From Bacteroidaceae bacterium (GTDB lineage: Bacteria > Bacteroidota > Bacteroidia > Bacteroidales > Bacteroidaceae): DNA of 64,000 nucleotides. The notes under the pieces are model-generated. The model was given only the letters and a program-made list of their open reading frames with translations. It ran no database searches and had not been told where the DNA came from. Positions within the stretch are counted from its first letter, which is position 1. Each line of letters opens with the position of its first letter. The DNA is taken from positions 77 through 64,076 of the forward strand of contig JAFUGG010000016.1 of NCBI GenBank assembly GCA_017469525.1, read 5' to 3'. Position numbers and translations under genes: made by a program. Below are positions 46,831 through 63,761 of this stretch, piece by piece.

Positions 46831-48032
46831 AGATACTTGTTACAGGCGCCAAGGGGTTTGTAGGAAAGAACCTCTGCTGGGCGTTGAGGAACATCAAGGA
46901 AGGCAAGGACAGGCGTTTCCCAAACCTACAGATTGAGGAAATCTTCGAGTACGACCTGGATTCCACTCCCGAGGAGTTGGACGCCTGGTGCAGTGACTGC
47001 GACTTCGTCTTCAACCTTGCTGGGGTGAACCGTCCGCAGAACCAGGAGGAGTTCATGCAAGGCAACTTCGGCTTTGCCAGCACGTTGCTCGACACGCTAA
47101 AGGTTCACGGCAACAAGTGCCCCGTTATGCTTTCGTCGAGCCAGCAGGCATCCTTGACGGGTCGTTTCGGCAACTCGGAGTACGGACGCAGTAAGAAGGC
47201 CGGCGAGGACTTGTTCCTGGCCTATGGCAAAGAGGTCGGTGCGAGGGTCTTGATTTATCGTTTCCCCAATCTCTTCGGCAAGTGGTGCCGTCCTAATTAC
47301 AATAGTGCTGTCGCCACCTTCTGCAATGCCTTTGCCAACGACCTGCCCTATACCGTCAACGATCCCAGTGTGGAGCTGGAGTTGCTGTATATTGATGACC
47401 TCGTTGATGAAATGATTGCCTGCCTGAAAGGTGAGGAGCATCATTGTGAGTTCAATGGTCTTGACGTGCTGCCACAGGCAGATGGCAGATACTGCTATGT
47501 CCCCACAACTCACAAAGCAACATTGGGTGAAATTGTCGAACTTCTAAAGTCCTTCGCAGAACAACCCAAGACTTTGATGATTCCTGAAATTGGGGAGGGT
47601 AGTTTTGCCAAGAAACTCTACTCCACGTATCTCAGTTATCTGCCTAAAGAGAAGGTGGCTTTTCCGCTAAAGATGAATGTCGATGACCGTGGCTCTTTTA
47701 CAGAGTTAGTGCATACTCTGAATGCTGGTCAGGTAAGCATCAACATCTCTAAGCCCGGTATCACGAAGGGGCAGCACTGGCACAACACCAAGTTCGAGCA
47801 GTTCATCGTAGTCAAGGGCCACGGCCTCATCCAGCAGCGTAACTTGAATGACCCCGAAGGTAAGGTGCTGGAGTGGGAGGTTTCAGGGGATAAGATTGAG
47901 GCCGTCCACATGCTCCCTGGCTATACGCACAATATCATCAACCTTTCCGAAACAGAGGACCTCGTCACGGTCATGTACTGCAACGAGATATTCAACCCCA
48001 ATAAGCCCGACACCTTCTTCGAGAAAGTTTAA
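46827..48032 (+). CDS. fnlB: CapF/FnlB-type reductase-epimerase (SDR domain plus C-terminal cupin)
   Basis: MKILVTGAKGFVGKNL Rossmann motif, YGRSK, and a C-terminal cupin-like region (DDRGSF...GQHWH). It lies between the CapG-like and CapE-like genes. Confidence 0.7.
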   Translation: MKILVTGAKGFVGKNLCWALRNIKEGKDRRFPNLQIEEIFEYDLDSTPEELDAWCSDCDFVFNLAGVNRPQNQEEFMQGNFGFASTLLDTLKVHGNKCPVMLSSSQQASLTGRFGNSEYGRSKKAGEDLFLAYGKEVGARVLIYRFPNLFGKWCRPNYNSAVATFCNAFANDLPYTVNDPSVELELLYIDDLVDEMIACLKGEEHHCEFNGLDVLPQADGRYCYVPTTHKATLGEIVELLKSFAEQPKTLMIPEIGEGSFAKKLYSTYLSYLPKEKVAFPLKMNVDDRGSFTELVHTLNAGQVSINISKPGITKGQHWHNTKFEQFIVVKGHGLIQQRNLNDPEGKVLEWEVSGDKIEAVHMLPGYTHNIINLSETEDLVTVMYCNEIFNPNKPDTFFEKV

Positions 48033-48034
48033 GG

Positions 48035-48087
48035 CACACGGAGAAGTAATTTAAAGGTCACACAGATTTTACGGAATACACAGATTC
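48035..48087. repeat. CACAGAT/CACGGA word repeats upstream of the GxxExxY gene
   Basis: CACACGGAGAAG...GGTCACACAGATTTTACGGAATACACAGATTC. It shares CACAGATTTTACGGA with the hairpin spacer at 42291-42306. Confidence 0.7.
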
Positions 48088-48102
48088 TTTTGCTAAGCAA
48101 AA

Positions 48103-48474
48103 ATGACGGACAACGAGCTGACTTACGAGATTAGAGGTGCTATTTTCGATGTATGTAATGAACTAGGTCCAGGTTTACTGGAGTCAGTTTATGAAGAAGC
48201 CTTGGCTTTCGAGCTCAAAGGAAGAGGGTTGAAAGTAGAACGTCAGGTTGAGGTTCCTATTCGGTACAAAGGAAATGAGCTCAAAACCCCTCTTCGACTT
48301 GATTTGCTCATCGAGAATCAAATTGTCGTAGAGTTAAAGTCAGTTGAAGAGATGAAGCCGGTGTTTGCAAAACAACTGCTTACATATTTAAGGCTTCTTA
48401 ATAAACGTGTTGGATTATTGGTCAATTTTTCGTCAAACAATATTCGTGAGGGAATAAGGCGAATAGTGAATTAG
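48103..48474 (+). CDS. GxxExxY-family protein (PD-(D/E)xK-like, PDDEXK_3)
   Basis: The 123-aa sequence has GPGLLESVYEEAL (the GxxExxY motif) and DLLIENQIVVELKSV (D...E.K). Confidence 0.85.
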   Translation: MTDNELTYEIRGAIFDVCNELGPGLLESVYEEALAFELKGRGLKVERQVEVPIRYKGNELKTPLRLDLLIENQIVVELKSVEEMKPVFAKQLLTYLRLLNKRVGLLVNFSSNNIREGIRRIVN

Positions 48475-48476
48475 TT

Positions 48477-48551
48477 GTCACACGGATTGCACAGATTACA
48501 CGGATGTTTTATAAAAAAAAGAATCTGTGATATCTGTGGTATCTGTGTGAG
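48477..48551. repeat. Imperfect inverted repeat of CACGGAT/CACAGAT words downstream of the GxxExxY gene
   Basis: The left arm GTCACACGGATTGCACAGATTACACGGAT and right arm ATCTGTGATATCTGTGGTATCTGTGTGAG are imperfectly complementary around an A8-containing loop. Confidence 0.7.
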
Positions 48552-48610
48552 ATAATAAGAGTTAATTTCTGTGTGAGACATAAGTAAGAACAAAATAATC
48601 AGTGTGAAAT

Positions 48611-49657
48611 ATGAGTTTATTCAAAGACAAAGTCCTCCTTATCACCGGAGGCACAGGTAGTTTCGGTAACGCAGTTCTTAACCGCTTCCTCAAGACAGAT
48701 ATCGGTGAGATCCGCATCTTCAGCCGCGACGAGAAAAAGCAGGACGATATGCGGCACGACTTCCAGGCACGTATGCCGGAGGTGGCGGGCAAGATCAAAT
48801 TCTACATCGGCGACGTGCGCAACAAGAGCACGCTGAAGTACGCGATGAAAGGTGTGGATTATGTCTTTCACGCTGCTGCGCTCAAGCAAGTCCCTAGCTG
48901 TGAGTTCTTCCCGATGGAGGCCGTCAAGACCAATGTCATCGGCACGGACAACACCTTAGATGCTGCTATCGACGCAGGCGTGAAGTGCGTCATCTGCCTC
49001 TCCACCGACAAGGCTGCGTATCCGATCAATGCGATGGGCATAACCAAAGCCATTGAAGAAAAGGTGGCCATCGCCAAGAGCCGCTACAGTGGTGATACGA
49101 AAATCTGCTGCACCCGCTACGGCAACGTGATGTGCTCGCGTGGCTCTGTCATCCCTCTCTGGATTGACCAGATCCGCAAGGGCAACCCCATCACGCTCAC
49201 TGAGCCGAAGATGACGCGCTTCATCATGTCGCTCGAAGAGGCCGTCGACTTGGTGCTCTTCGCCTTCGAGAACGGAGATAATGGCGACATCCTCGTCCAG
49301 AAAGCTCCCGCCTGCACCATCGGCACCCAGGCCGAGGCCGTCTGCGAGCTCTTCGGCGGCAAGAAAGAAGATATCAAGGTCATCGGCATCCGCCACGGCG
49401 AGAAGATGTACGAGACGCTCCTCACCAAGGAAGAGGCAGCCAAGGCGGTGGACATGGGCAACTTCTACCGCGTGCCGGCTGACAACCGCGACCTCAACTA
49501 CGACAAGTATTTCAAGGAGGGCGATGCCAAGCGGGCCACCATCGAGGAATTCAACAGCGACAACACCCGTCGGCTGAACCTCGAGGAGACGAAAGAGAAA
49601 ATAGCCAGCCTACAGTATATTCAGAATGAGCTGAACGGGATTCCGAATCTGGTTTAA
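48611..49657 (+). CDS. fnlA: UDP-GlcNAc 4,6-dehydratase/5-epimerase, CapE/FnlA type
   Basis: MSLFKDKVLLITGGTGSFGNAVLNRFLKTDIGEIRIFSRDEKKQDDM...KFYIGDVRN is the characteristic CapE/FnlA N-terminus. The length (348 aa) also fits. Confidence 0.8.
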   Translation: MSLFKDKVLLITGGTGSFGNAVLNRFLKTDIGEIRIFSRDEKKQDDMRHDFQARMPEVAGKIKFYIGDVRNKSTLKYAMKGVDYVFHAAALKQVPSCEFFPMEAVKTNVIGTDNTLDAAIDAGVKCVICLSTDKAAYPINAMGITKAIEEKVAIAKSRYSGDTKICCTRYGNVMCSRGSVIPLWIDQIRKGNPITLTEPKMTRFIMSLEEAVDLVLFAFENGDNGDILVQKAPACTIGTQAEAVCELFGGKKEDIKVIGIRHGEKMYETLLTKEEAAKAVDMGNFYRVPADNRDLNYDKYFKEGDAKRATIEEFNSDNTRRLNLEETKEKIASLQYIQNELNGIPNLV

Positions 49658-49677
49658 CGGGTCAAGGGGTTAGACCC
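49657..49677. repeat. Left copy of a 21-bp inverted repeat flanking the two Mfa2-like genes
   Basis: ACGGGTCAAGGGGTTAGACCC. The reverse complement of 51645-51665 is ACGGGTCAAGGGGTCAGACCC (20 of 21 identical). Confidence 0.8.
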
Positions 49678-49777
49678 GCCTTCCTGTGTATTTGCTGAAA
49701 AAAGAGCTAAATCAGGAGCATCCGTGTGAGCATCCTCCTGATGTAATCAATTATAAATCAATAAATACATTCAAACA

Positions 49778-50675
49778 ATGAAGAATTTATTTTTTTTTAA
49801 TTGCGGCTCTTTGCATCACGTTTGCAAGCTGCAGTAACGAGAGTGAAGCAACAGTAGAGAATCTGACGGAGATAGGACTTGCACCCGTAACGGTGCAGGT
49901 GAGCGACTTCTCCATGTCTCAGGAGGACTTCTCGGACGGAACGACGAGAGCGGCATCTTCCGTGGCCGACTACACGGGAGTAAAGTCCATCACCCTGGCT
50001 TTCTTCAAGGCCGACGGCACGAAGCAGAGTGAACTGACACAGCTCCGCTCCGACGCCTCTACCTATGAGACCTTCGGCCAGTTTGCACTTGAGTTGCCAG
50101 TGGGCGGCTACAAGATGGTCGTCATTGCACATGCCAACGACATGGCCATCGTGCTGCCCAGCATGACGGAAGCAAACTTCGGCGAGGAGAAGACTCGCGA
50201 AACATTCTGCTACACGCAGGATGTCGTCATTAGCAATGCAACTCCCAACGCCTTCACCCCTACGCTCAACCGCATCAACTCACGTGTGTGCGCCATCTCT
50301 ACCGACCAGCGTCCGGCTGATGTAAATATCGTTCGCATTACATTCTCTGCAGGCAGTAAGAGTTTCAACCCGCTGACGGGACTGGCAACTGCAAATACAG
50401 GCTATACCAGCAGCATAGTTGTCAACACACCGCTTACTGACGTTGTGAAGACTCGTGCCGACATCTTCCTCACGACTGATGAGCAGACGATGGATGTCAC
50501 CATCGAGACGCTCGATGACAACGGCAATGTGCTCTTCAGCAAAGTCGTCAAAGACGTGCCCTTCAAGCGTAACCGCGCCACTTTACTCACAGGCTCGATG
50601 TACTCGCCCGGCAGTGTCTCTGCCTCGTTCTCTGTAGAGGCTGCCTGGCAGAATGATTACAACATTAACTTCTAA
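49778..50675 (+). pseudogene. Frameshifted lipoprotein gene (FimB/Mfa2-like fimbrial-anchor family, tentative)
   Basis: The ATG at 49778 encodes MKNLFFF and then goes out of frame at a T9 tract (49790-49798). The +1 frame continues IAALCITFASCSNE... into the 260-aa ORF that ends at 50675. Removing one T restores MKNLFFLIAALCITFASC (lipobox). Confidence 0.65.
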
Positions 50676-50677
50676 AC

Positions 50678-51577
50678 ATGGAGGAGCAGACTATGTTTAG
50701 AAGATTGATATCCCGCGGTTTCGTCAGCGCATTGGTGCTGATAGCCGCAATGGCGATGGTATCCTGCGAGAGAGTTGTGTCCTCTGACGGAGACGAAATC
50801 TCTGCCGACAAGAGCGGTAACCTGCGTGTTCGGGTGTTCCAGATAGACAAGACACCGTTCGCTGCTACGCGTGCCGCAGCTTCCGAGGCTTGCTCAAGGC
50901 TGAACTTCGCCATATATAATAATGATGGTTCGCGCGTGAAGCAACTGAATCAGCTCGCTACCGACAAGAACTTCGGCATGGCGTCGTTCCAACTCGACAA
51001 GGGCGACTACATGCTGGTGGTCGTGGGCCACAGTGCCAATGGTAACCCCACGATGACGAACGCTCAGAAAATCTCGTTCACCAATGCCCAGGGCTATACC
51101 GATACGTTCCTCGCCAGCGGCGACATTACTATCGGCGATGAACCCGAGGAGATGGACCTGACGCACGAACGCATCGTGGCGCTCTGCTGTTTCTGCATCA
51201 CCGACGACTTCCCAGCCGATGTGGCGAAGATGCAGTTCTACTACACAGGCGGCTCGGGTGCTTTCAGTGCCTACACGGGCCTGGGCAGCGTGAACAGCAA
51301 GCAGACGGTGACGTTCGATGTCTCCTCGGTAGCACAGAAGCAGTTCGACCTCTACACCTTCCTGCACGAACCGGCGGACAACATCGCCCTGAAGGTGACG
51401 GCATTCGATGCCGCAGGCAACACACTCTACGAGCGCGACTTCGATGTGCCGATGGAGCAGAACCACATCACATGGCTCGCAGGTGACTTTTTCAACGGCT
51501 CCGGCTCCTCATCGACCACAGTGACCGGCGTGACGGTGAATACCGACTGGGCCGGTGAGACGCATCTGACCTTCTAA
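50678..51577 (+). CDS. Lipoprotein paralogous to the preceding gene (FimB/Mfa2-like, tentative)
   Basis: The lipobox context is LIAAMAMVSC. The layout matches 49778-50675 (RVFQIDKT...LNFAIY...YMLVVVGH versus VQVSDFS...ITLAFF...YKMVVIAH). It starts 3 nt after the previous stop. Confidence 0.6.
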   Translation: MEEQTMFRRLISRGFVSALVLIAAMAMVSCERVVSSDGDEISADKSGNLRVRVFQIDKTPFAATRAAASEACSRLNFAIYNNDGSRVKQLNQLATDKNFGMASFQLDKGDYMLVVVGHSANGNPTMTNAQKISFTNAQGYTDTFLASGDITIGDEPEEMDLTHERIVALCCFCITDDFPADVAKMQFYYTGGSGAFSAYTGLGSVNSKQTVTFDVSSVAQKQFDLYTFLHEPADNIALKVTAFDAAGNTLYERDFDVPMEQNHITWLAGDFFNGSGSSSTTVTGVTVNTDWAGETHLTF

Positions 51578-51644
51578 GGCCTGACTTTATGGCAAGCCGA
51601 CCGGAAGGATGCAACGGATGCTTCCAGCCGGCTTCCGGGTCAGA

Positions 51645-51665
51645 GGGTCTGACCCCTTGACCCGT
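51645..51665. repeat. Right copy of the 21-bp inverted repeat flanking the two Mfa2-like genes
   Basis: GGGTCTGACCCCTTGACCCGT. It overlaps a local hairpin, GGGTCAGA-GGG-TCTGACCC, at 51637-51655. Confidence 0.8.
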
Positions 51666-51823
51666 GAAAAAGATGCCGGAAAGAGGCAAGAGCAAACAAA
51701 GATAATTCATAGAGAATTTATTAATTAATAGAACACACCTTAAGAGTTCTTGGACGAGCCAAGCGGCAAAGCCGAGCGAAGAGTGAAAAGGTAAAAGTTG
51801 TATTGCACCGAATTGGGGTAGAG

Positions 51824-51889
51824 ACAGATTTCTGTGATATCTGTGCTTTCTGTGAGACGAAACGAAATAAACAATAACGATAACGATAA
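51824..51889 (+). repeat. CTGTGA word repeats plus a wecB leader copy (AACGAAATAAACAATAACGATAACGATAA)
   Basis: ACAGATTTCTGTGATATCTGTGCTTTCTGTGAGAC resembles 48523-48551. The leader at 51861-51889 is repeated at 62228-62257 with a one-base difference. Confidence 0.75.
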
Positions 51890-52411
51890 ACGCAAGCTGG
51901 TGCTGATAACCGGTCACCGCCGCGAGAACTTCGGCGAAGGCTTCATTTCGATGGTCACGGCAATGAAAGACCTCAGCGAGAAATACCCCGACGTGGACTT
52001 CGTCTATCCGATGCACCTCAATCCCAACGTGCGCAAGCCCATCCACGAGGTGTTCGGCGAAGACCTCACCAAGTACAGCAACTTCTTCTTCATTGAGCCG
52101 CTGCAGTACCTGGGGTTCGTCTATCTGATGGAGAAGTCCACCGTCGTCCTCACCGACAGCGGCGGCATCCAGGAAGAGGCCCCCGGCCTGGGCAAGCCCG
52201 TCCTCGTGATGCGTGACACCACCGAGCGTCCCGAAGCCTTCAAGAGCGGCACCGTCCACCTCGTCGGCACCAACCACGACCTCATCGTCAGCGAAGTCAG
52301 CACCCTCCTCGACGACCCGCAGGCCTACGTGCGTATGTCCAAGGCCGTCAACCCTACGGCGACGGCAAAGCCTGCAGCCGCATCGTCCGGGCGCTCAAGG
52401 CTGCGAATTAG
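51888..52411 (+). pseudogene. wecB: UDP-GlcNAc 2-epimerase (WecB) remnant: N-terminal half deleted and a 3' frameshift
   Basis: It starts at KRKLVLITGHRRENFGEG, which is mid-protein, directly after the leader. It contains DSGGIQEEAPGLGKPVLVMRDTTERPE. At 52353-52357 one base is missing, so NPYGDGKACSRIVRALKAAN-stop is read in another frame and ends at 52411. Confidence 0.8.
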
Positions 52412-52639
52412 CGAGAGGAGAGCCGAACTTGTTTGAGCTATCCCGAGCGTGAGCAGACTCGACAATAGTCAAGGACGAGCAGGTGGATAGATACGAAGTG
52501 AAATAGGACCTCCTTACATCCTCCTTGGGTGTTCCTTAAGTTTTCCTATAGTCTCCTTTGAACTACAAGCAACATAATTGGTGAGAAGTTAAGAAAAATA
52601 AAAGTTGCTAACGGATGCGATTTTGTTGCCGCAAAACGT

Positions 52640-52647
52640 TACCTTTG
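52640..52647 (+). promoter_or_regulatory. Bacteroidota -7 box (TACCTTTG) of the PtuA-led operon
   Basis: A TAnnTTTG match lies 31 nt upstream of the ATG at 52678. Confidence 0.5.
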
Positions 52648-52677
52648 TAGAAAAACATATATTATAGTTTAAGTGTT

Positions 52678-53904
52678 ATGCTGATAACCGGAATCGAAAT
52701 ACACAACTTTAGAGGCATCAGAGAATTGTCTATATTGGATTTTGACCGCCATGCAAATCTCTTTGTTGGAAAGAACGGTGCGGGCAAGTCTTCGCTCCTT
52801 GATGCCATATCCAATGTAATGTCCTGGTTTGTGGCGCGTATGCTTTCAACTACGGGTCGCGGACGAGACATTGCCGTCAACGATATAGGCTTCCGTTCCA
52901 GGGAAGGTTCTGTTATCAGATTACAGATAGACGGCGGCGAGTGGAGCAGTCTATACCGCAGCAAGGAGATGAAGAAGGATGGAAAGTCGGATTTGTCACC
53001 ACTAAATGCCGTAGTAAAGACCTTACGTGAGAATATTGAAGATAATCCACGTACGTCAGTACCAATATACGTTCATTATGGTGTTGGACGAGTAGTGGCG
53101 GACATCCCTCTGCGAATCAGGAAGAATCCCAGACGGGATGTTACCAATGCATACGTTGAAGCACTGGAGAGTAGTGCTTCATTTCGTGACTTTTTCGCAT
53201 GGTTCCGTGAACAGGAAGACCTGGAAAACGAACATATCCGTGAAAACCCGCATTATCGTGACCGTGGGATGGAGGCCATCCGCGATGCAATGTCAAAGAT
53301 ATTCTCGGAATTCAGTGAGATGCGTGTGCGCCGCAGTCCTCGCTCCATACAGATAAAAAAGGAAGGGGAAGTACTGCGACTTGAGCAGTTGTCCGACGGG
53401 GAGAAATGCTATATCGCCTTGGTGTGCGATTTGACAAGGCGTCTTACCATTGCGAATCCGGGACTTGAGAACCCACTGGACGGGGCCGGTGTCGTACTCA
53501 TCGACGAGATAGACCTACACCTCCACCCTGAGTGGCAAATGGATGTGGTGTCGAGGCTTATTACCACATTCCGTAATTGTCAGTTCTTTGTGACGACTCA
53601 CTCCCCGATAGTAGCGTCCGACGTGAAAGGACGCGTTTTTGTCATGGAAGATGGTCAGGCATACCCGCGTGTCACTTATGGCAAGGATAGTGAACAGATT
53701 CTCGCTTCCGCATTCGGTGTGGCAAATCCCAGAAACAAGACTGTTCAAGGTATGATAGACAATGCTTACAAGGCCATACGTGAAGGTAGTATGGAAGTTG
53801 CGAAGGACATTCTGGCGGAAATCGTATCTGCTGTTGGACAGGATGATCCAGTTGTGAGTGGTATAAAGTTGGAAATGGCTCGCAAGAGTAGGGGAGGAAG
53901 ATGA
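52678..53904 (+). CDS. ABC/SMC-like AAA ATPase, PtuA-like (Septu-type)
   Basis: Walker A GKNGAGKSS, signature-like LSDGEK, Walker B VVLIDEIDLHLHP and H-loop TTHSP. An HNH partner gene follows. Confidence 0.8.
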   Translation: MLITGIEIHNFRGIRELSILDFDRHANLFVGKNGAGKSSLLDAISNVMSWFVARMLSTTGRGRDIAVNDIGFRSREGSVIRLQIDGGEWSSLYRSKEMKKDGKSDLSPLNAVVKTLRENIEDNPRTSVPIYVHYGVGRVVADIPLRIRKNPRRDVTNAYVEALESSASFRDFFAWFREQEDLENEHIRENPHYRDRGMEAIRDAMSKIFSEFSEMRVRRSPRSIQIKKEGEVLRLEQLSDGEKCYIALVCDLTRRLTIANPGLENPLDGAGVVLIDEIDLHLHPEWQMDVVSRLITTFRNCQFFVTTHSPIVASDVKGRVFVMEDGQAYPRVTYGKDSEQILASAFGVANPRNKTVQGMIDNAYKAIREGSMEVAKDILAEIVSAVGQDDPVVSGIKLEMARKSRGGR

Positions 53905-54533
53905 GAACGATAATTAAAAATGAGGCACCAGCCTGCCTCTCCGAAGCAGAGAAGAAGGGATGGAAATGGGACGAGTTTGTTCTAAATGACCGTCTTGGCT
54001 ATCAGACCTGTCGTCAGCAGGCGTATGACGAGCAATCCGGTGTATGTGCTTACACCGAGTTGCCACTTGATTCGGCGAGGTCAACCATCCATCTCGACCA
54101 TTTCAGGCGGAAAGGCATTTATCAGCGTCTCCGGTTCGAGTGGAACAACCTGTTTGCCGCTGTCAAGGACAACCGTTTCGGGTCGGATTATAAAGACAAT
54201 ATCGTCAAAAGCAACAACGAGCAAAAGATATACAACGTAATTCTCAGCCCGTTAGTGCCTCAACTTCAACGGTATTTCCACTATGCTACCAATGGCGAGG
54301 TAGAGCCTTCATCAGAATTGTCAGATGATGATAAGGAAAGGGCAAAGGCTACCATCGATATCTTTCATTTGAACGAAAGTGAATTGGTCAGTCGTCGTAG
54401 AACTATGATGGTGCAGATTTCCACTTACCATGATTTACCCGAGGAAACCATCCGCCAGAGTTTTGTCGGCGCAGGTTTTCCGTCGGTCGTGGATCAGGAG
54501 GTTGGTTTTATGATTTTAGGACATGAAGCGTAA
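53901..54533 (+). CDS. HNH-type nuclease, PtuB-like (TIGR02646-like)
   Basis: CAYTE...IHLDHFRRK...WNNLFAAV...N..K is an HNH core arrangement. The ATGA overlap with the ATPase gene suggests translational coupling. Confidence 0.7.
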   Translation: MRTIIKNEAPACLSEAEKKGWKWDEFVLNDRLGYQTCRQQAYDEQSGVCAYTELPLDSARSTIHLDHFRRKGIYQRLRFEWNNLFAAVKDNRFGSDYKDNIVKSNNEQKIYNVILSPLVPQLQRYFHYATNGEVEPSSELSDDDKERAKATIDIFHLNESELVSRRRTMMVQISTYHDLPEETIRQSFVGAGFPSVVDQEVGFMILGHEA

Positions 54534-56544
54534 ATTATCCACAAGCAGCAGAAGCGTACTTAATTCCGGATTGACCGAGGATTATAAAAAGGCGATTGCT
54601 GAGTATATCTGGAACGGATTCGATGCCGGTGCAACCTGTGTTGAGATTCGTTACACTGCCAATCCGCTAGGCGGAGTAGATGATTTGTGGGTTATCGACA
54701 ATGGCAGTGGTATCAACTATGGTACTCTTGATCTGACATTCGGAGCTTTTCTTGACTCTAATAAGATACAGTCCTTTCAGCGTTCTTCTGAGGTGAGAGG
54801 CAGAAAAGGAAAAGGGCGTTTTTCATACAATGTCATATCGGGCGGTGCTTCATGGCAAACAAAGTACAAGGATGACGAGGGAGTTCTCAAACAATATGAA
54901 ATTAAAATTTATTCATCTGACAGATCCGAGTATGATGCATCAGAGCCAGAATCTGTGCTTGTAGCGGAAGGACAGGAAACAGGCACTGCCGTTCATTTCC
55001 TTGATATGCGTTCTAATCTTGTCGAGGATGATTTGACAAGCGATTCTTTCTGCAATTACTTGTCAAGCGAGTTCGCATGGTTCTTGGAATTGAACAAGTC
55101 AAAAGGATATGCTATCAAGATTGAAGGTGTTGTTTTGGATTATCGGAATCTGATAGGAGAGACGGAAGAACAAACTATAGAAATTGGAGAAGAATCCTTT
55201 AGAATCAACTTTATCCGCTGGTCGCGGAAAATAGGTGATAAGTACTATTATTACCTGATGAATTCCAATCTACGGGAAGTTTGTAAGGTCTTGACCTCAT
55301 TTAATAACAAGTCCACAACTTTCCATCATAGCGTTTACGTCACCTCTCAGTATTTTAACAAGTTCGAGTGGGATAAGGAACCTGGTGCTCGTCTTGATGG
55401 ACTCTACAATCAGAGCCATGAGGCTTATGAGGCTTATAAGACTCTGATGAAACGCCTGCGTGCTTATCTGTCTAAGAAAGAGAAGGAGTATATACGAGCA
55501 GTTGGAGCAGCCCAACTGATAGCACAGTATGAGAAAGATGGCATTCTGCCTAAGTTTTCCGATGACAAATATGGAAAGGCACGAAAAAAAGATTTGGTGG
55601 AAGCCATACAAGGTATCTACGCTGTGCAACCCAAGATTTTCTTGAAACTTGCTACCGAACAATGCAAAACTATGGTGGGTTTTTTGAACCTGCTTCTTGA
55701 CTCTAATGAGCGAAACAACGTAATAACTATCATTGAAAGTGTTGTTCACTTAACGCCAGAGGAACGGGAAGAGTTGGCTGCCACTTTGCGTACTACAACG
55801 CTAAGTCGTATCAATTCTGCTATCAGTCTGGTTAAAAATCGCCTTATTGTTATTGAGGGACTTAAGAAGTTGGTTACGGACAACGAGAAGTTCACAACAG
55901 AACGTGACCATATTCAGAAGATAATTGAAGAGAATTACTGGCTGTTTGGAGAACAGTTTAATCTTGTAACCGCAGACAAGCCCTTCACAGCAGCTCTAAT
56001 GGAATTTACTTACTTACTGGATGGTAAAGTTGAGAAAGGAAGTTTCACGGCAGAAGATGCTCGTCGCAGACCGGATATCTTCATATGTAGAGGACAGGCT
56101 TTGCCAGGTTACCAATATTCTTCTTTCCTTGAAGAGCAGATTATAGTGGAGTTGAAGAGACCTTCCGTTGTGATCGGAACCACGCAGTTGAGGCAGATAC
56201 AAGACTACCGTGATATTATTCTGAAAGAGCCGACTTTTAATTCTCAGATGCGGAGATGGAAGTTCATAGTTGTGGGGAAAGAAGTTGATGAATCTGTAAA
56301 AAACGAGTACAAATCATTTGCCGACAAAAACCGGCCAATGCTTGTTCATTATAGAGAGAATTTTGAAATATATGCCATGACATGGGATGATGTGTTCGTG
56401 ACATTCGAGCACCGTGAGAATTTTATCCTTGAGAAACTCCAATTTGACAAGCAAATGATTCATAATGAAGTTGAGGCTTATGCTAAGTCAAGAGAGGGTT
56501 CTGATGCATTAACGAAGGACATCTTGAGTTTGAATACCAAATAA
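54523..56544 (+). CDS. GHKL (Bergerat-fold) ATPase fused to a C-terminal PD-(D/E)xK nuclease (Shedu/DUF4263-like)
   Basis: N-terminal motifs are EYIWNGFDAGAT (ExxxNxxDA), VIDNGSGI (DxGxG) and GRKGKGRFS (Gly-rich lid). The C-terminal motifs are NYWLFGEQF, RRPDIFIC and IIVELKRP (D...ExK). It overlaps the HNH gene by 11 nt. Confidence 0.7.
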   Translation: MKRKLSTSSRSVLNSGLTEDYKKAIAEYIWNGFDAGATCVEIRYTANPLGGVDDLWVIDNGSGINYGTLDLTFGAFLDSNKIQSFQRSSEVRGRKGKGRFSYNVISGGASWQTKYKDDEGVLKQYEIKIYSSDRSEYDASEPESVLVAEGQETGTAVHFLDMRSNLVEDDLTSDSFCNYLSSEFAWFLELNKSKGYAIKIEGVVLDYRNLIGETEEQTIEIGEESFRINFIRWSRKIGDKYYYYLMNSNLREVCKVLTSFNNKSTTFHHSVYVTSQYFNKFEWDKEPGARLDGLYNQSHEAYEAYKTLMKRLRAYLSKKEKEYIRAVGAAQLIAQYEKDGILPKFSDDKYGKARKKDLVEAIQGIYAVQPKIFLKLATEQCKTMVGFLNLLLDSNERNNVITIIESVVHLTPEEREELAATLRTTTLSRINSAISLVKNRLIVIEGLKKLVTDNEKFTTERDHIQKIIEENYWLFGEQFNLVTADKPFTAALMEFTYLLDGKVEKGSFTAEDARRRPDIFICRGQALPGYQYSSFLEEQIIVELKRPSVVIGTTQLRQIQDYRDIILKEPTFNSQMRRWKFIVVGKEVDESVKNEYKSFADKNRPMLVHYRENFEIYAMTWDDVFVTFEHRENFILEKLQFDKQMIHNEVEAYAKSREGSDALTKDILSLNTK

Positions 56545-56561
56545 TTTACTTTGATATCGCA

Positions 56562-57023
56562 ATGTCTCCCGAGGATATAATAGCATTACTTTCAGTACTA
56601 TTATCAGCCATTGTTGCTGTTGCTGGCATTGTCATTGCGCGACAGTCGGAGAAATTGCGGACAATGAGAAAACAACTCTCCGAGAAGAAGTGTGAAGCCT
56701 ATGCAGATGCGGTGGAATTATTCTATTCTTTATTGAAGGATTCAAAATCTCATCGTGTAACTAACAACGACAAGATGATGCAGAAGATGATTGATATCAA
56801 ACGAGACATCTTTATGTATGGTTCTGATAAGGTGTTTAGAGCGTTCAATACTTGGTTACTGTACACAACAAAGAATAACGATAAAGCTCAGTTTGCTGCT
56901 TTTTTGGATTTCGTTTTGGAGATGCGAAAGGACTTGTGTAATAACAAAACAAGATTGACCAAACAAGATATACTCCTGAACCTTACTCAAAGCGAAGAAG
57001 AAGTTAGAAAACTAAATAATTAA
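56562..57023 (+). CDS. Small membrane-anchored helical protein (unknown function)
   Basis: 153 aa with one N-terminal TM segment (IIALLSVLLSAIVAVAGIVIA) and a helical cytoplasmic part. It starts 17 nt after the previous stop. Confidence 0.55.
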   Translation: MSPEDIIALLSVLLSAIVAVAGIVIARQSEKLRTMRKQLSEKKCEAYADAVELFYSLLKDSKSHRVTNNDKMMQKMIDIKRDIFMYGSDKVFRAFNTWLLYTTKNNDKAQFAAFLDFVLEMRKDLCNNKTRLTKQDILLNLTQSEEEVRKLNN

Positions 57024-57025
57024 GT

Positions 57026-57430
57026 ATGTCTATGCTCACTACCTTTCAACAACAATACATAGCCCAGTGGCATGATGGGTTCATGAGTTACGTCGGAAGT
57101 TTGCTCGGGGTGATTGCCGGACTTGTGACAAGACCTGAGGCGACGCGCGAAGATAAGGAGGCGCTGGAAGCTGTAAAGATGATGCTGACAGGCAAGGATG
57201 CTGAGGATGTGGAGCGGGATTTGTCCTCAGGCATCATTAAGAAGAGTACACTGGATAAGATAGAAAAGATCAATGGGGATTTGGTTGACACTTGCCTGGC
57301 GCATATTCAGATGAATCCCTTGGTACGGGAGTTCTGTAAGCAAATGATGCATATCCAGATAACTCACAATAGAAGAGCTGAAGCGATGAGGCTACAGGCA
57401 TTGCATATACCGATTATTGAGAATCTGTAG
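57026..57430 (+). CDS. Small hypothetical protein (unknown function)
   Basis: 134 aa with one hydrophobic segment (YVGSLLGVIAGLV). It starts 2 nt after the previous stop and is the last gene of the AT-rich operon. Confidence 0.5.
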   Translation: MSMLTTFQQQYIAQWHDGFMSYVGSLLGVIAGLVTRPEATREDKEALEAVKMMLTGKDAEDVERDLSSGIIKKSTLDKIEKINGDLVDTCLAHIQMNPLVREFCKQMMHIQITHNRRAEAMRLQALHIPIIENL

Positions 57431-57686
57431 ATAAAAATCACTTGACGAGTGATCAATTGCTGTTTATAGGCGAAAACTGGCATCAACTTCCTTGTTTTGA
57501 ACAAGTTTACAGTCCTCTGGCGAAAAGGTCGGTTGTGACGGTTATATAATGGGTGAAGCGAGTGGCTTCGCTAATAAGTTCATTGGTGGATGCAGCCCGA
57601 GTTCAGGCCAGTTTGGGCTGCCCTCTTTTCTCGAGCGGGAAAGAGGTTCTCGAGAAAAAACAGAAAAAAACGAAAAAAATTGGCTT

Positions 57687-57718
57687 GATGGAGAAAAGCT
57701 GATTTTCGGCGGTTAATA
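57687..57718 (+). repeat. Copy A of a 32-nt element ending GGCGGTTAATA
   Basis: GATGGAGAAAAGCTGATTTTCGGCGGTTAATA matches 59618-59649 at 26 of 32 positions. It lies 73 nt upstream of the ATG at 57791. Confidence 0.7.
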
Positions 57719-57790
57719 CATAAGTGTGAGACGTAAGTCTTGCGAGAGTCAACTAAAGTTTAAGTAAACACTTTAAAATGATGAAAAATT

Positions 57791-58342
57791 ATGTTAGACC
57801 GTTTGAAACAACTGGAAAAACTTGACCGCGTTACCGAGGCGGAGTGGCGGGAGGCGCTATCGGCGCTGACCGCCTGGATTGCCTGGCGGCTCCGGGGCAA
57901 AACGAGCTACGGAGCCCATTCGGAAGAGGAGTTGGGGATGCCCGCTGCGGATTATTACATAGGCGAGGCCGTGATGCGGCTCTTTGAGTGCCGCTGGGAA
58001 TGGCAGGACCGCTTCTCTCTGAAGGATCAACTTATCAGGATGGTAGGCAGCCTTATCGACACGCAGCTGAAGGCCTATCAGCTGAAGGTGGAAGAGGGTC
58101 GGTGCTCTACGGGCGAAGTGGATGCGTCCACGCTCTCCGACAGCCTGCCCGACGATGACTACACACTGGACGTGGCCTATGAGATAGCGCAAGCTAAAGT
58201 GAAGGGCGACAATGAGCTGGAGTCTTTCCTCGATGCTATCAGGACGTTCAATGATTTCAAAGCTATCAGCTCGCATTTAAACATCACAATTGATCAAGTC
58301 TATAACCTGCAGAAAAGGCTTATGCGGAGACTTGGAAAGTAA
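57791..58342 (+). CDS. Hypothetical protein with C-terminal HTH (sigma-70 region-4-like)
   Basis: 183 aa. The C-terminus FKAISSHLNITIDQVYNLQKRLMRRL resembles a region-4 helix-turn-helix. I could not recognise a region-2 motif. Confidence 0.5.
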   Translation: MLDRLKQLEKLDRVTEAEWREALSALTAWIAWRLRGKTSYGAHSEEELGMPAADYYIGEAVMRLFECRWEWQDRFSLKDQLIRMVGSLIDTQLKAYQLKVEEGRCSTGEVDASTLSDSLPDDDYTLDVAYEIAQAKVKGDNELESFLDAIRTFNDFKAISSHLNITIDQVYNLQKRLMRRLGK

Positions 58343-58352
58343 ATCAAGAATA

Positions 58353-58712
58353 ATGAACTTATTAGATAAAATCAACGCCCTGCGCGTTGAATCGATAACC
58401 CCAGAGGAAATCAAGGAGACTCTGGGAGTGAGCCAGGACGAACAGGTAGAGAAGATGATGAAGACGGTGCGCCGTCTCAAGTTCAAGGCCAAGGCCGAGC
58501 AAGGCCGTCTCAAGAGCGAACGGGCCGCGAAGCTGCGGCGCATCATCTCCGGCAGGGGCGAGAACTCGGTGCGGCTGCGCTCAAGGATCCAGTCACGCTA
58601 TCCGGCTATGCAGTTCCGTAATCTGGAGCAACTGACCGACGAGCAGCTGGCGCAAATCGCCGACGACCTGGAAATCTTGGAAATCCTGGAGAGCGAGAAT
58701 GAGCAGGGGTAG
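58353..58712 (+). CDS. Small charged helical protein (possible partner or regulator of the ImmA-like peptidase)
   Basis: 119 aa, K/R/E-rich with an acidic tail. Its 3' end overlaps the ImmA-like gene by 14 nt. Confidence 0.5.
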   Translation: MNLLDKINALRVESITPEEIKETLGVSQDEQVEKMMKTVRRLKFKAKAEQGRLKSERAAKLRRIISGRGENSVRLRSRIQSRYPAMQFRNLEQLTDEQLAQIADDLEILEILESENEQG

Positions 58713-59562
58713 CGAGGCGGCCCAGCAAATGCTGGACGAATTCGGCTTAGACAGCGTCATAGACGAGGATCTGTGTGACCTCGTCTATGCACGCGGTCTG
58801 GTGTTTCAGGAAGTGCCGCTGTCGGGATGCGAGGGCAGGATTATTTACAGCCCCTCGGGACAGACAGCGGTGGTGACAGTGAACAGCAACACCCGCTACC
58901 GGCCCCGCAAGCGCTTCTCCATTGCGCACGAGCTGGGACACTATGAACTCAAGCATAACAAGATACATTGTGAAAACGAAGGTACGCTGGACTGCTACCG
59001 CAAAGGCCATCAGGAGGCCGAGGCCAATGAGTTTGCCAGCGAACTGCTGATGCCTGCCGCCTTGTTCGACAAGGCCGTGCAGGGACGGTGCTTCTCTCCT
59101 GCGTTGGTTGAGGAGGTGGCCGAGCAGTTCGGGACGAGCGTTTCCAGCGTCGTCTATCGCTACCTGATGAGCGGCCCCGTGCCTGTGGCAGCGGTCTATT
59201 CCTACTGCGGCAAGGTAGTGTGGTGGCGCAAGTCACAGGGGATGCAGCGGCGGATGATCGACTGGACCGGCCGCGAGGTGCCGCACAATTCCGTGAGCGA
59301 GGAGTGGTTTCAGGACCATACGGTCTATGCCACCAACGATATTCAGGACGTTGACCTGAATGTCTGGTTCGACTTGGGAATGTATCGGACCTATACGCAT
59401 ACCAGTAGCAAACGCTTCGGTATGGAACAGATGGGCATCCGCGGATGGGATAGCTGGGATGAGGCCAAAGAAGATACCTCCACAGGAGAGCCGATGTGTC
59501 ACGAGCACTGCTTCGTGTCCCGCGACTTCGGGAGCGCACTGGCGGTCATCTGGGAGGACTGA
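58699..59562 (+). CDS. ImmA/IrrE-family zinc metallopeptidase
   Basis: FSIAHELGHYELKH (HExxH) and EANEFASELLMP, as in ImmA/IrrE (DUF955) proteins. Confidence 0.75.
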   Translation: MSRGSEAAQQMLDEFGLDSVIDEDLCDLVYARGLVFQEVPLSGCEGRIIYSPSGQTAVVTVNSNTRYRPRKRFSIAHELGHYELKHNKIHCENEGTLDCYRKGHQEAEANEFASELLMPAALFDKAVQGRCFSPALVEEVAEQFGTSVSSVVYRYLMSGPVPVAAVYSYCGKVVWWRKSQGMQRRMIDWTGREVPHNSVSEEWFQDHTVYATNDIQDVDLNVWFDLGMYRTYTHTSSKRFGMEQMGIRGWDSWDEAKEDTSTGEPMCHEHCFVSRDFGSALAVIWED

Positions 59563-59617
59563 GAACGAAAACGTTAACGATAACGAAAGCGAAAACCTTT
59601 GTACAGAAAATGCCATA

Positions 59618-59685
59618 GGTGGAGAAAACCAGACTCTGGGCGGTTAATATAGGAGTGAAGCAGCTTCAAAAACAAGTATTAACCG
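59618..59685 (+). repeat. Copy B of the GGCGGTTAATA element plus a hairpin
   Basis: GGTGGAGAAAACCAGACTCTGGGCGGTTAATA. CGGTTAATA (59641-59649) pairs with TATTAACCG (59677-59685). It lies upstream of the ATG at 59709. Confidence 0.7.
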
Positions 59686-59708
59686 TTTAAAAATAGGAGG
59701 AAACAACT

Positions 59709-60755
59709 ATGGCAAAGATTAGTGGAATCAACACGAAGATCAGTGGTCAGGTGGGTGAGTATTTGTTCCGCCAGACCAAGTATGGAACGATTGTGAGCGA
59801 GGCTCCGGTGCGTAGCTCGACGCCGCGCCGCAGCCAGCTGCAGATGAACACGCGGACGCAGTGGGCGAACCTGGGGGCGATCTACCGCCAGTTCGACGAT
59901 ATGCTGAAGCGGGGGTTCGAGAGTCTGCCGACGGGGATGAGCGTGTACAACGCTTTCGTGCAGGCGAACCTGGGAGTGGTGAAGGTGTATATCACCAAGA
60001 CGATGCGGCTGAACGGCGGCTCGGTGTTGGCACCTTACCAGATTACCCGCGGCACCCTGCCCAGCATCCCGATGGGCCTCAGCACCGACGGCCTGCTGAT
60101 GAGCGGACTGAGCGTAGGCTCGCTGAGCATCGACGCGGCCACCACCATCGGGGCTTTCAGCGAGGCCATCCTCGCGGGTAACTTCGGCTGGCAGGAAGGC
60201 GACCAGCTTTCGTTCTTCCACGGGGTGCAGACAGTGGACCAGGTGACGGGCATCCCCCGCGCCACCATCACCGGCTATCGCGTGGTCATCAACACCGCCG
60301 ACGAGACGCCCCTGTGGGATGTCGTCAATCCCATCGGATTCAGCACCGTGGCCTCGGGCAGCGCAGGCATCAACGTCATCGCCACCAGCCAGGCTATCCA
60401 GAGCGGCGCCGGTGTGTGGGTACACAGCCGCGAGACCGACAGCGGCCTGAAGGTAAGCACCCAGTTCTTCTATGTGGAGAACGCAGCCCTAGCCACCTAC
60501 CAGAGCAGCGCTGCCCAGGTCGCCAGCGCCAACAGCTACGGAGGCATCAACACCAGCCAGGTGTTCCTGCAGCCCAGTGTGAGCGGCAGCAACGGCGTTG
60601 CTAACGTTAACCTTAACGCTAACGATAACCAGAGCGGCAGCGGCTCGGGCACCGATGGAAACGATAACCCTAACGAAAACCAGGGCGGAACTGGTGGAAA
60701 CACGGGTGGTAATACCGGCGGTGACGGTGGCGACGGCGACGATATGAGCGACTAA
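59709..60755 (+). CDS. Hypothetical protein with G/N/D-rich low-complexity tail (possibly DUF6266-like)
   Basis: 348 aa, N-terminus MAKISGINTKISGQVGEYLFRQTKYGTIV, tail NVNLNANDNQSGSGSGTDGNDNPNENQGGTGGNTGGNTGGDGGDGDD. The family assignment rests on my recollection only. Confidence 0.5.
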   Translation: MAKISGINTKISGQVGEYLFRQTKYGTIVSEAPVRSSTPRRSQLQMNTRTQWANLGAIYRQFDDMLKRGFESLPTGMSVYNAFVQANLGVVKVYITKTMRLNGGSVLAPYQITRGTLPSIPMGLSTDGLLMSGLSVGSLSIDAATTIGAFSEAILAGNFGWQEGDQLSFFHGVQTVDQVTGIPRATITGYRVVINTADETPLWDVVNPIGFSTVASGSAGINVIATSQAIQSGAGVWVHSRETDSGLKVSTQFFYVENAALATYQSSAAQVASANSYGGINTSQVFLQPSVSGSNGVANVNLNANDNQSGSGSGTDGNDNPNENQGGTGGNTGGNTGGDGGDGDDMSD

Positions 60756-60850
60756 ACTTCATCTTTCAGAGCGGGTGGGTGGCAACCCTGCCTCCCGCCT
60801 CCCTCTGAATCTTTAGACAGTAAATGTTGAACAGTAAACGCTAAAGGAAG

Positions 60851-61321
60851 ATGAAGTACTTTACGATTAGCGAGATGCTTCACAGCCCGACGGCTGTGGC
60901 TCGCAAGATATGGAACGGCTGTGGCCGCACCGAGGAGGACAACCTCACGGCCCTCATCGAGAACGTGTTGGAACCCACGCGTGAACGCTATGGCAAGGCC
61001 ATCCACGTGAGCAGCGGCTTCCGCTGTCCGCAGCTGAACAGCCTCATCCACGGCGCCACCCAGAGCCAGCACCTTCGTGGCGAAGCCGCTGACATCTATA
61101 CCGACGCAGGCCCGGTGGGCAACCTTGAGGTGGCACGCCTTATCATCGCCTCCGGTTGCTTCGACCAGGTCATCCTGGAGAACGTCCCCGGCAACCAGCT
61201 CCTGCCTCAGTGGATTCACGTCAGCTGGAAGCGCCTCGGAGCCAACCGCCGGGAGATACGCAAGAAGGTCATCGGTAGCAATAGCTACCCTGTGCTGACG
61301 CGAAAGGAGGTGGGCCTATGA
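60851..61321 (+). CDS. Peptidase M15 (zinc D-Ala-D-Ala carboxypeptidase / phage endolysin-like)
   Basis: SGFRCPQLN, the H-x6-D motif (HLRGEAAD) and WIHVSW (third zinc ligand). Confidence 0.75.
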   Translation: MKYFTISEMLHSPTAVARKIWNGCGRTEEDNLTALIENVLEPTRERYGKAIHVSSGFRCPQLNSLIHGATQSQHLRGEAADIYTDAGPVGNLEVARLIIASGCFDQVILENVPGNQLLPQWIHVSWKRLGANRREIRKKVIGSNSYPVLTRKEVGL

Positions 61322-61635
61322 CACTGGATTGGACCAACATTATCCTCGCCGTGCTGACCCTCATCGGAGGCTGCGGATGGATTGTGAACCACCGCAAGTA
61401 CCGTCAGGAAGTACGGAGCCTTCAGGCCGACAACCGGCAGAAGGATATGAACCTGAGTAAGGATTATGTGACCGAGTGGCGCACCTACATCGCTGAGCCC
61501 TTGCAGCGTGAGGTGAACGAGCTGCGGCAGGAAGTGGCCGAGCTGCGGTATGCGATACAGCGTATTAGCGACTGTGCTCATCGCGCTAAGTGTCCTGTGC
61601 TGGAGCAGTTGCAGCGTCAGCCGGAGGGCGAGTAG
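61318..61635 (+). CDS. i-spanin-like protein (N-terminal TM segment plus coiled coil)
   Basis: The TM segment IILAVLTLIGGCGWIV is followed by a heptad-like region, [20 protein letters not shown]. It overlaps the endolysin-like gene by 4 nt. Confidence 0.55.
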   Translation: MTLDWTNIILAVLTLIGGCGWIVNHRKYRQEVRSLQADNRQKDMNLSKDYVTEWRTYIAEPLQREVNELRQEVAELRYAIQRISDCAHRAKCPVLEQLQRQPEGE

Positions 61636-62044
61636 CAGCGAGCGGAGCCTTCGCACGGAGACAGTGACAAGGGATACGGTCTGGCAGCAAGTGGTGGTGG
61701 CCGTCCACGACACCCTTTGCGAGGTGACCACCATCACCCTCCAGCAGAACGACCAGGGCGACACCCTCAAGCTGCTGCAGGTCACAGACCGCACACGCGC
61801 CTCCCGTAGCAGCGACCTACGAGAGAATAAGAAACGAACGGAAGTAAGAGTTGATACCGTGTATGTAGAGAAGCAGTCAGACAACACCGTGGCCGTTGCG
61901 GGCCCTGGAGTAACGGTAGACAAAGACGGAACATTAACCGTGAACCGTTCACCTTTAACCTTTATGAAGTGGCTTTTTGCCATACTATGTGCATTGATAG
62001 TATTGATAATAACCATTAAAGTCTGTTTGCGGAAGGCTCTCTGA
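61550..62044 (+). CDS. Lipoprotein overlapping the previous gene out of frame (o-spanin-like, with an extra C-terminal TM segment)
   Basis: Lipobox context [22 protein letters not shown]. It overlaps the 3' end of 61318-61635 by 86 nt. The C-terminal TM segment is [16 protein letters not shown]. Confidence 0.5.
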
Positions 62045-62090
62045 CGAGGGCCTCCGCAGACTGCGTTTACGAGATAAAACACGTTTTAAC

Positions 62091-62228
62091 ATGAAAGGAA
62101 TAGTACTCGCCGGAGGCTCCGGCACGCGGCTTTACCCGATTACCAAGGGCGTTAGCAAACAGTTGTTGCCCATCTACGACAAGCCGATGGTGTATTACCC
62201 CAGCAGTGCGCTGATGCTGGCAGAATAA
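62091..62228 (+). pseudogene. rfbA: Glucose-1-phosphate thymidylyltransferase (RfbA/RmlA), 5' fragment of 45 codons
   Basis: [37 protein letters not shown] is the canonical RmlA N-terminus. The reading frame stops where the wecB leader copy begins. Confidence 0.85.
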
Positions 62229-62256
62229 ACGAAATAAACAATAACGATATACGATA

Positions 62257-63184: not shown

Positions 63185-63185
63185 T

Positions 63186-63548: not shown

Positions 63549-63610
63549 ATGAGATTTCCCATTTATAATTCTGCAAGATATTAATATAGAACAAATAAAA
63601 TAATAGCGAT

Positions 63611-63721: not shown

Positions 63722-63761
63722 CCTTTAATGTTATTCAGGTATAAATTATATAAATCTTTCT

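Follow-up and report, generated by a model that had tools for sequence, protein, structure and literature searches.

Five closely packed genes at a polysaccharide locus of a Bacteroidaceae bacterium probably form a defence island of three separable modules

Does a row of five closely packed genes on one strand encode a single multi-component defence system, or several systems that have become neighbours? This question is raised by positions 52678–57430 of a 64,000-nucleotide (nt) stretch of contig JAFUGG010000016.1, from a Bacteroidaceae bacterium (assembly GCA_017469525.1), here called the window. The five open reading frames (ORFs), all on the plus strand, encode the ATPase PtuA (gene 1), the nuclease PtuB (gene 2), a protein that joins a GHKL ATPase to a PD-(D/E)xK nuclease (gene 3), and two small proteins (genes 4 and 5). 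An earlier note on this DNA had read them as one co-translated system with two different ATPases and two different nucleases, in a composition not described before. We propose, with a probability of about 0.8, that the block is a defence island of three separable modules, namely a Septu pair, a GHKL-Shedu gene and the gene 4–5 pair. The five genes are divided in this way because Septu, gene 3 and genes 4–5 each occur apart from the others elsewhere.

A search of species-representative genomes gave 384 stretches that encode a relative of gene 3, spanning Bacteroidota, Clostridia, Cyanobacteria, Desulfobulbia, the candidate phyla radiation (CPR) and one archaeon, and 80 diverse loci were examined together with as much as 10 kb of sequence to either side. 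Searches by tblastn and with hidden Markov models (HMMs) revealed no PtuB, gene 4 or gene 5 near gene 3 in any of the 80. Clustering of the ORFs within 5 kb gave no conserved partner for gene 3, the commonest neighbour being present at only 9/80 loci. Gene 3 is, as judged from these neighbourhoods, a putative single-gene system without an obligate partner. Closer copies present the same picture. A copy with 91% identity (contigs L081–84) lies 3′ of Mfa2-like genes, behind a 354-nt spacer, and a copy with 84% identity (L085–87) lies 3′ of the Kiwa genes KwaA/KwaB; both are without PtuAB. A copy with 77% identity (L001) has a GmrSD enzyme on one side and an AbiJ-like gene on the other, and one with 70% identity is 3′ of SIR2 and PARIS-like fragments. 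In blastn comparisons of the window with DNA copies of 76–81% identity (84% and 91% at the protein level), the homology extends from 54522 to 56547–56549; these ends coincide almost exactly with those of the gene 3 ORF, which was counted toward modularity.

The Septu pair is also found by itself. PtuAB occurs without gene 3, with several kb of downstream sequence available, in L111 (PtuA with 89% identity) and L114 (73%), where glycosyltransferase-like genes or an unrelated 751-aa protein follow. Three further contigs (L112, L113 and L115, PtuA with 68–81% identity) show no gene 3 and end about 0.3 kb past PtuB. PtuAB is therefore predicted from these contexts to exist as a two-gene unit without further conserved partners. 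The order of all five genes is confined to contigs of the same lineage, in which gene 3 is at least 93% identical to that of the window (L088–L095, L110 and L116). All other contexts break this order, and the co-occurrence of the five genes was not found across divergent lineages. Gene 3 stands beside PtuAB only at or above this identity and elsewhere has unrelated neighbours, which is essentially the outcome that the earlier note had named as refuting its proposal.

The features of the block are collected in Table 1. The arrangement described in the earlier note was recovered exactly: five genes of the same strand, an ATGA overlap at 53901–53904 that places the PtuB start over the PtuA stop, an 11-nt overlap of genes 2 and 3 at 54523–54533, and spacings of 17 nt from gene 3 to gene 4 and 2 nt from gene 4 to gene 5. 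The −7 box that it had named is the sole plus-strand TAnnTTTG within 51500–58500, and may be considered as the presumed single promoter of the whole block. The hairpin located 3′ of gene 5 is the strongest terminator-like site in 52300–57900 and is presumed to be the 3′ end of the transcription unit. The block is also richer in AT than both sides, as noted before: the GC contents of genes 1–5 are 0.485, 0.468, 0.412, 0.370 and 0.467 (0.37–0.49) against 0.54–0.62 in flanking genes, and those at third codon positions are 0.40–0.56 against 0.67–0.81. Inside the block the composition is uneven, with about 0.47–0.49 in PtuAB, 0.41 in gene 3 and 0.37 in gene 4, and this unlikeness between modules was counted toward modularity as well.

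Table 1. Coordinates of the genes and signals of the block and of the gene remnant on its left side, in positions of the window
Feature	Position	Strand	Size or remark
Epimerase remnant, C-terminal half of UDP-N-acetylglucosamine (UDP-GlcNAc) 2-epimerase	51834..52436	+	Pfam Epimerase_2, E = 6.4e-46, profile 171-332 of 347
Bacteroidetes-type −7 box TACCTTTG (TAnnTTTG)	52640..52647	+	30 nt 5′ of PtuA start codon
Gene 1, PtuA, Septu ABC/SMC-like ATPase	52678..53904	+	408 aa
Gene 2, PtuB, Septu HNH nuclease	53901..54533	+	210 aa
Gene 3, GHKL ATPase + Hsp90/MutL-like middle domain + E-D-ExK nuclease	54523..56544	+	673 aa
Gene 4, uncharacterised family, N-terminal transmembrane helix	56562..57023	+	153 aa
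Gene 5, usual companion of gene 4	57026..57430	+	134 aa
Terminator-like hairpin and T-rich tail	57592..57631	+	12 pairs, 6 of them G-C; hairpin itself 57592-57621

An obligate system of five proteins, whose two ATPases and two nucleases are translated together by way of the overlaps, would agree with junctions that overlap or are nearly gapless, with one −7 box and one strong terminator, and with the order kept in several metagenome contigs of the lineage. We consider such a system extremely unlikely. Gene 3 occurs at 91% and 84% identity without PtuAB, and PtuAB at 89% and 73% without gene 3; genes 4–5 are found with Hachiman and other cassettes; 0/80 of the diverse gene 3 loci carry PtuB, gene 4 or gene 5; and Septu (PMC12819146) and GHKL-Shedu (PMC12137116) are each documented as working alone. 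The part of the earlier proposal that concerned transcription is plausible, as the promoter and terminator suggest a single unit; the joining of its products into one multi-component system is unsupported. The ATGA and 11-nt overlaps may couple translation. In the reading preferred here they are a by-product of the tight packing of cassettes and no sign of a shared complex. The same gene 3 elsewhere trails its upstream gene by 167–396 nt, and the search for −7 boxes 5′ of gene 3 in these other contexts gave none at the strict consensus, a result that is uninformative.

Genes 1 and 2 encode a full-length and stand-alone Septu PtuA/PtuB pair. PtuA matches the PADLOC PtuA model (PDLC00271, E = 4.8e-126), with residues 1–404 aligned to positions 1–415 of the 421 of the profile, and also Pfam AAA_21, AAA_15 and SMC_N. 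The ATPase motifs announced in the earlier note were all located, as Walker A (GKNGAGKS, 31–38), signature (LSDGE, 238–242), Walker B (VVLIDE, 272–277) and H-loop (TTHS, 306–309). PtuB matches the PADLOC PtuB model (PDLC00326, E = 2.3e-50) over its full length and NCBIfam TIGR02646 with 83.9 bits, above the cut-off of 52.15; its HNH motifs are HLDH (64–67) and WNNL (81–84).

An association of PtuAB with a retron was rejected. The retron Ec78 PtuA model (NF041760) gave 292 bits, under its cut-off of 500, so the pair is not of the retron-associated kind, and NF041761 gave 114 bits against a cut-off of 150, so that both proteins stay under the retron Ec78 cut-offs. No Rfam family, retron RNAs included, was matched at E <= 1 across 51000–59000. 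No reverse transcriptase ORF adjoins PtuAB, whose neighbours are Mfa2-like genes, the epimerase fragment and gene 3.

The earlier note had seen in gene 3 a Bergerat (GHKL) ATPase joined with a PD-(D/E)xK nuclease, and Pfam, conservation and fold searches agree on this. The GHKL domain matches Pfam HATPase_c_3 at residues 22–136 (E = 2.8e-14), and the motifs of the whole protein are ExxxNxxD (27–34), DNGSG (59–63), GRKGKGRF (93–100), PD (517–518) and ELK (543–545). In an alignment of 36 relatives with 34–85% identity, the GHKL motifs I–III are invariant (E27, N31, D34; D59, G61, G63; G93, G96, G98), T155 of motif IV is nearly invariant, and the C-terminal E-D-ExK set E460, E477, D518, E543 and K545 is invariant. 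The AlphaFold model of the whole protein has a predicted local distance difference test (pLDDT) value of 76. With this full-length model, Foldseek recovered the N-terminal and middle domains of Hsp90/TRAP1 over 400–465 columns (E about 1e-10) and MLH1 over 298 columns with a TM-score (target) of 0.44; these alignments leave the C-terminal part of the query uncovered, which keeps the global TM-scores low. Since Hsp90/TRAP1 dominated this search, the C-terminal domain (residues 440–673) was modelled separately, with a pLDDT of 88, and its fold search returned FokI, EndoMS/NucS, AspBHI, Cap4, Bse634I and MspJI. The modelled C-terminal fold is that of a generic PD-(D/E)xK nuclease, not specifically Shedu. 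When gene 3 was compared with the PDB by sequence and by profile, solely the GHKL domains of MutL, PMS1, MLH1 and Topo VI-B matched, and SduA was not among the matches.

In four contigs (L090, L091, L093 and L094) gene 3 is called as a protein of 654 aa that starts at an internal TTG and drops 19 N-terminal residues, including conserved positions. The DNA is identical to the window over the compared stretch, and the shorter form is a start artefact of the gene caller, neither a mutation nor a truncation.

The architecture of gene 3 has already been described, which speaks against the undescribed composition that the earlier note had supposed. Iyer, Abhiman and Aravind (2008) defined paraMORC3 by GHKL and S5 domains and a C-terminal restriction endonuclease (RE)-fold E-D-ExK domain; these proteins are prevalent in Proteobacteria and Bacteroidetes, at times as solitary genes (PMC2292703). 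Shedu homologues with a HATPase_c_3 (GHKL) fold and an Hsp90/MORC-like middle domain were reported later as Shedu type I-D (bioRxiv 10.1101/2023.08.10.552793). VcSduA of Vibrio cholerae (A1552VC_00276) is of this architecture, suffices by itself for protection from T1-like phages and vibriophage X29, and loses its defence with E27A or K557A (PMC12137116). The assignment of gene 3 to the paraMORC3/GHKL-nuclease architecture is firm, and its membership in Shedu sensu stricto is probable. Pfam SduA_C (DUF4263, PF14082) is not matched at E <= 1 by gene 3 of the window and is matched by 3/25 homologues (best 1.1e-5). The PADLOC SduA model gives only E = 0.029 for the window protein and weak matches for 8/25 homologues; for both models, significance is reached just by some homologues at 50–53% identity. 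Gene 3 matches PHROG 6203 over its full length, and it has full-length relatives at 25–26% identity in a Salmonella plasmid and in Pasteurella phages.

Gene 3 could instead encode a BbrUII/HgiDII-like restriction endonuclease, either solitary or modification-dependent, and not a sensor-nuclease of Shedu type. The C-terminal fold search was led by restriction enzymes (FokI, AspBHI, Bse634I and MspJI), PADLOC REase_II matches 2/25 of the homologues and Pfam HSDR_N_2 21/25, and paraMORCs were placed in restriction-modification contexts by Iyer and coworkers (PMC2292703). Residues 407–610 also match NCBIfam BbrUII/HgiDII (NF050001) with E = 6.6e-14, but this corresponds to 51.4 bits against a family cut-off of 550. 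The block contains no methyltransferase, none is a conserved neighbour across the 80 gene 3 loci, and VcSduA, a relative by architecture, acts without a methylase (PMC12137116). Membership in the BbrUII/HgiDII family was rejected on the score and on the lack of a methyltransferase, and the wider idea of a restriction endonuclease is distinctly unlikely.

Some of the loci that carry gene 3 deserve description. At the 77% copy (L001, 7928–13407), the GmrSD-type enzyme matches PADLOC HEC-06 (E = 3.7e-201) and the AbiJ-like gene corresponds to a PDC-S32 protein, accompanied by DUF6016; this GmrSD and GHKL-Shedu neighbourhood is reminiscent of GrwAB-VcSduA in V. cholerae. In L085, a protein with a phosphoribosyltransferase domain and a DprA-like protein (DNA_processg_A) occupy 4444–6184, between a NusG/UpxY-like gene and Kiwa, and are possibly another defence pair.

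Genes 4 and 5 form the third module. Gene 4 has an N-terminal transmembrane helix at about residues 6–25 (Kyte-Doolittle 19-residue maximum of 2.91), and the remainder is helical. Neither gene has a match in Pfam, NCBIfam or PADLOC at E <= 0.01, and PHROGs gave nothing better than E >= 0.02 (for gene 4 only E >= 0.05). The homologues number 431 for gene 4 and 174 for gene 5, and the gene 4 family comprises 371 representative clusters at 50% identity. No fusion was seen among the 150 gene 4 matches listed, all of at most 215 aa, and ten distant relatives gave solely matches under the Pfam cut-offs.

The two genes are paired in L096–99, L107–108 and L118–121. In the first of these groups the pair lies 7 nt 3′ of Hachiman HamA/HamB; gene 4 without gene 5 (L104–106) and a frameshifted gene 4 with gene 5 (L122) are also found 3′ of Hachiman. 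In L118–121 several small proteins, DUF6941 among them, are encoded 5′ of the pair. In L107–108 it is located between two other cassettes. The one on its 5′ side (1–5521 of L107, and L108) is uncharacterised and encodes a Dcm-type DNA methylase, an 839-aa HATPase_c_3 protein (MORC/paraMORC-like GHKL) and three proteins of about 224–229 aa; the one on its 3′ side encodes a TIR-like protein of 535 aa and two caspase-like (Peptidase_C14) proteins. Gene 5 without gene 4 occurs in L100–103, 3′ of a candidate defence cassette (1077–6944) of Abi_alpha, a 663-aa SMC-like AAA_23 ATPase, proteins of 199 aa and 369 aa, and a protein of 415–432 aa with a faint N6_N4 methylase match.

Counting Septu plus GHKL-Shedu of the window, genes 4–5 lie directly 3′ of at least five cassettes unrelated to each other, with gaps of 7–115 nt, and in every case elsewhere polysaccharide-synthesis genes are found within a few kb downstream. 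In these positions the pair behaves like a unit that either is resident or moves independently. No conserved DNA motif that would mark a recombination hotspot was seen 5′ of gene 4. Our best guess is that genes 4–5 serve as a landmark of the locus or as a small module in their own right, and belong as subunits neither to Septu nor to the GHKL-nuclease. They could act as a shared membrane effector or regulator, or as a small abortive-infection or toxin-antitoxin pair; alternatively, they could anchor a cassette-exchange hotspot that puts defence genes under capsule-operon control. That this single-pass membrane protein and its partner represent a module new to the defence islands of Bacteroidales, whether accessory or stand-alone, is a tentative idea, with the odds well against it.

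Several observations weigh against the division into three modules with a GHKL-Shedu gene among them. One is a remnant, 26 residues long, of the gene 4 C-terminus, directly 3′ of the Kiwa-linked gene 3 copy in L085–87, which hints at an older adjacency of genes 3 and 4. Together with the 17-nt gap between these genes in the window, it would suit genes 4–5 as accessories of gene 3, for example as a membrane-anchored regulator or effector, in a three-gene system beside Septu. This is very unlikely, since tblastn and HMM searches gave no gene 4 or gene 5 relative near the 80 diverse gene 3 loci, the 91% copy of gene 3 is followed by an unrelated 135-aa ORF, and genes 4–5 trail Hachiman by 7 nt and other cassettes that have no gene 3. 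The remnant also fits a turnover of cassettes just 5′ of a resident gene 4–5 pair.

Other such observations concern the unity of the block within its lineage. The five genes stay together in the same order in L090–95, L110 and L116, and L088 has just 52511–57432 in common with the window, with both flanks different; beyond the shared block it runs into a SMODS and SLATT pair. Given the PtuB/gene 3 overlap and the lack of a second −7 box, gene 3 probably relies here on the promoter of Septu. Finally, the family assignment of gene 3 is affected by the weak sequence link of its nuclease to DUF4263, and by the C-terminal fold search, in which E. coli SduA appeared only at rank 22 (E = 0.29). Alternatively, separable systems could cooperate here, with synergy or layered responses arising from their co-expression under one promoter; for example, nicking or tRNA cleavage by Septu could act with GHKL-Shedu DNA cleavage on one invader, or each system could cover the phages that escape the other. 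The shared transcription unit that we infer and the retention of the block as a unit in L088 are consistent with this, but the co-occurrence is limited to one lineage, and the analogous cluster of V. cholerae, in which GrwAB adjoins VcSduA, was shown to behave as two independent systems (PMC12137116). Cooperation is thus unlikely, though conceivable, and three separable modules are retained as the preferred reading.

Under three separable modules, the island would sit inside a capsule-type polysaccharide locus of a rumen or gut Bacteroidales bacterium. One promoter near 52640 would drive the three modules, and the transcript would end at the hairpin near 57600. In the published Septu model, an oligomer of the PtuA ATPase holds the PtuB HNH nuclease, infection releases or activates PtuB, and nucleic acid is cut; nicking of plasmid DNA and cleavage of tRNA-Tyr are the activities reported for PtuAB. 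Following this model, the PtuA oligomer of the window would restrain PtuB or activate it upon infection. By analogy with VcSduA, the gene 3 protein would form a dimer through its GHKL domains, and the binding or hydrolysis of ATP (E27) would gate the PD-(D/E)xK nuclease (D518, E543, K545) against phage DNA.

The earlier note had placed the block between fragments of capsule genes, which is correct for the upstream side only. There, the epimerase remnant is the left scar of a polysaccharide locus; its identity to the intact epimerase of 45667–46827 is just 32%, and so it is a remnant of a different polysaccharide locus and not a local duplication. Mfa2-like genes and intact polysaccharide genes are found 5′ of it. 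On the downstream side, no capsule gene was seen among the genes scanned or read to about 63.9 kb, and an ImmA/IrrE-type peptidase and a lysis-like gene set follow the block.

The whole phage-like set (57791–62044) looks like a prophage remnant or a lysis cassette, and is conserved across the same-lineage contigs L090–L095. It opens with a 183-aa protein and a small acidic protein, continues with the ImmA/IrrE M78 peptidase (58699–59562), a 348-aa protein with a Gly/Asn-rich tail and an M15 peptidase (60851–61321), and ends in two small proteins with transmembrane or lipoprotein-like ends (61318–61635 and 61550–62044). The last part of the window (62000–64000) is very rich in AT (GC of 0.32–0.44) and has small ORFs of 142, 123, 137 and 66 aa. 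Contig L092, which matches it, runs on into a faint zeta-toxin-like gene. The sister contigs L090 and L091 carry other genes in this place (353 aa, 130 aa and an AAA_17/18 protein), and therefore it is another strain-variable cassette site.

Same-strand defence cassettes immediately 5′ of, or inside, polysaccharide-biosynthesis loci were observed in the window (45600–57430) and in L081–L087, L096, L100–L109 and L118–L122. They include Septu, GHKL-Shedu, Kiwa, Hachiman, SMODS plus SLATT, TIR/caspase-like, HigBA and DUF4062 cassettes; those of L085 lie 3′ of the NusG/UpxY-like gene. These positions suggest a cassette hotspot that may share its transcripts with capsule genes. Within polysaccharide loci, the cassettes are joined with ORF-precise boundaries. 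Polysaccharide loci are phase-variable in other Bacteroides, and defence cassettes placed there might couple intracellular immunity to the expression of the capsule.

The result is mainly corrective, in that tight packing, overlapping codons and a single promoter do not prove a single system. Septu and the GHKL-nuclease of the window belong to known kinds and add Bacteroidales members to two known defence families. What is left as novelty is the gene 4–5 pair and the stacking of cassettes at polysaccharide loci; both the recurrence of this pair, which borders many defence cassettes, and the placement of such cassettes could be worth attention.

Compared with type I Septu, both proteins of the window match the Septu models over their full length with complete ATPase and HNH motifs; start and stop codons overlap in the same way, and there is no reverse transcriptase and no noncoding RNA. 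The window pair differs in running without an intergenic gap into another defence gene, and otherwise presents nothing notable. Canonical Shedu SduA of Bacillus cereus and E. coli shares with gene 3 a C-terminal PD-(D/E)xK nuclease, the single-gene format and an N-terminal regulatory region. Its nuclease is of the DUF4263 family and its N-terminal domain is non-enzymatic, whereas gene 3 has a GHKL ATPase and a middle domain.

The closest likeness, compared by architecture, is to VcSduA (Shedu type I-D). Both are single polypeptides with GHKL motifs I–IV and Glu 27, an Hsp90/MutL-like middle domain and an E-D-ExK nuclease, in which K545 of gene 3 corresponds to K557 of VcSduA. Both also occur as solitary genes in defence islands with unrelated systems as neighbours, and for both, GmrSD-type enzymes are among these neighbours. 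On the other hand, gene 3 of the window lacks a separate intergenic region and starts within the end of PtuB. In the GrwAB-VcSduA cluster of V. cholerae (VSP-II, WASA lineage), as in the window, a GHKL-Shedu gene lies directly 3′ of a two-gene nuclease system; that system is a GmrSD-like type IV restriction enzyme in V. cholerae and Septu in the window.

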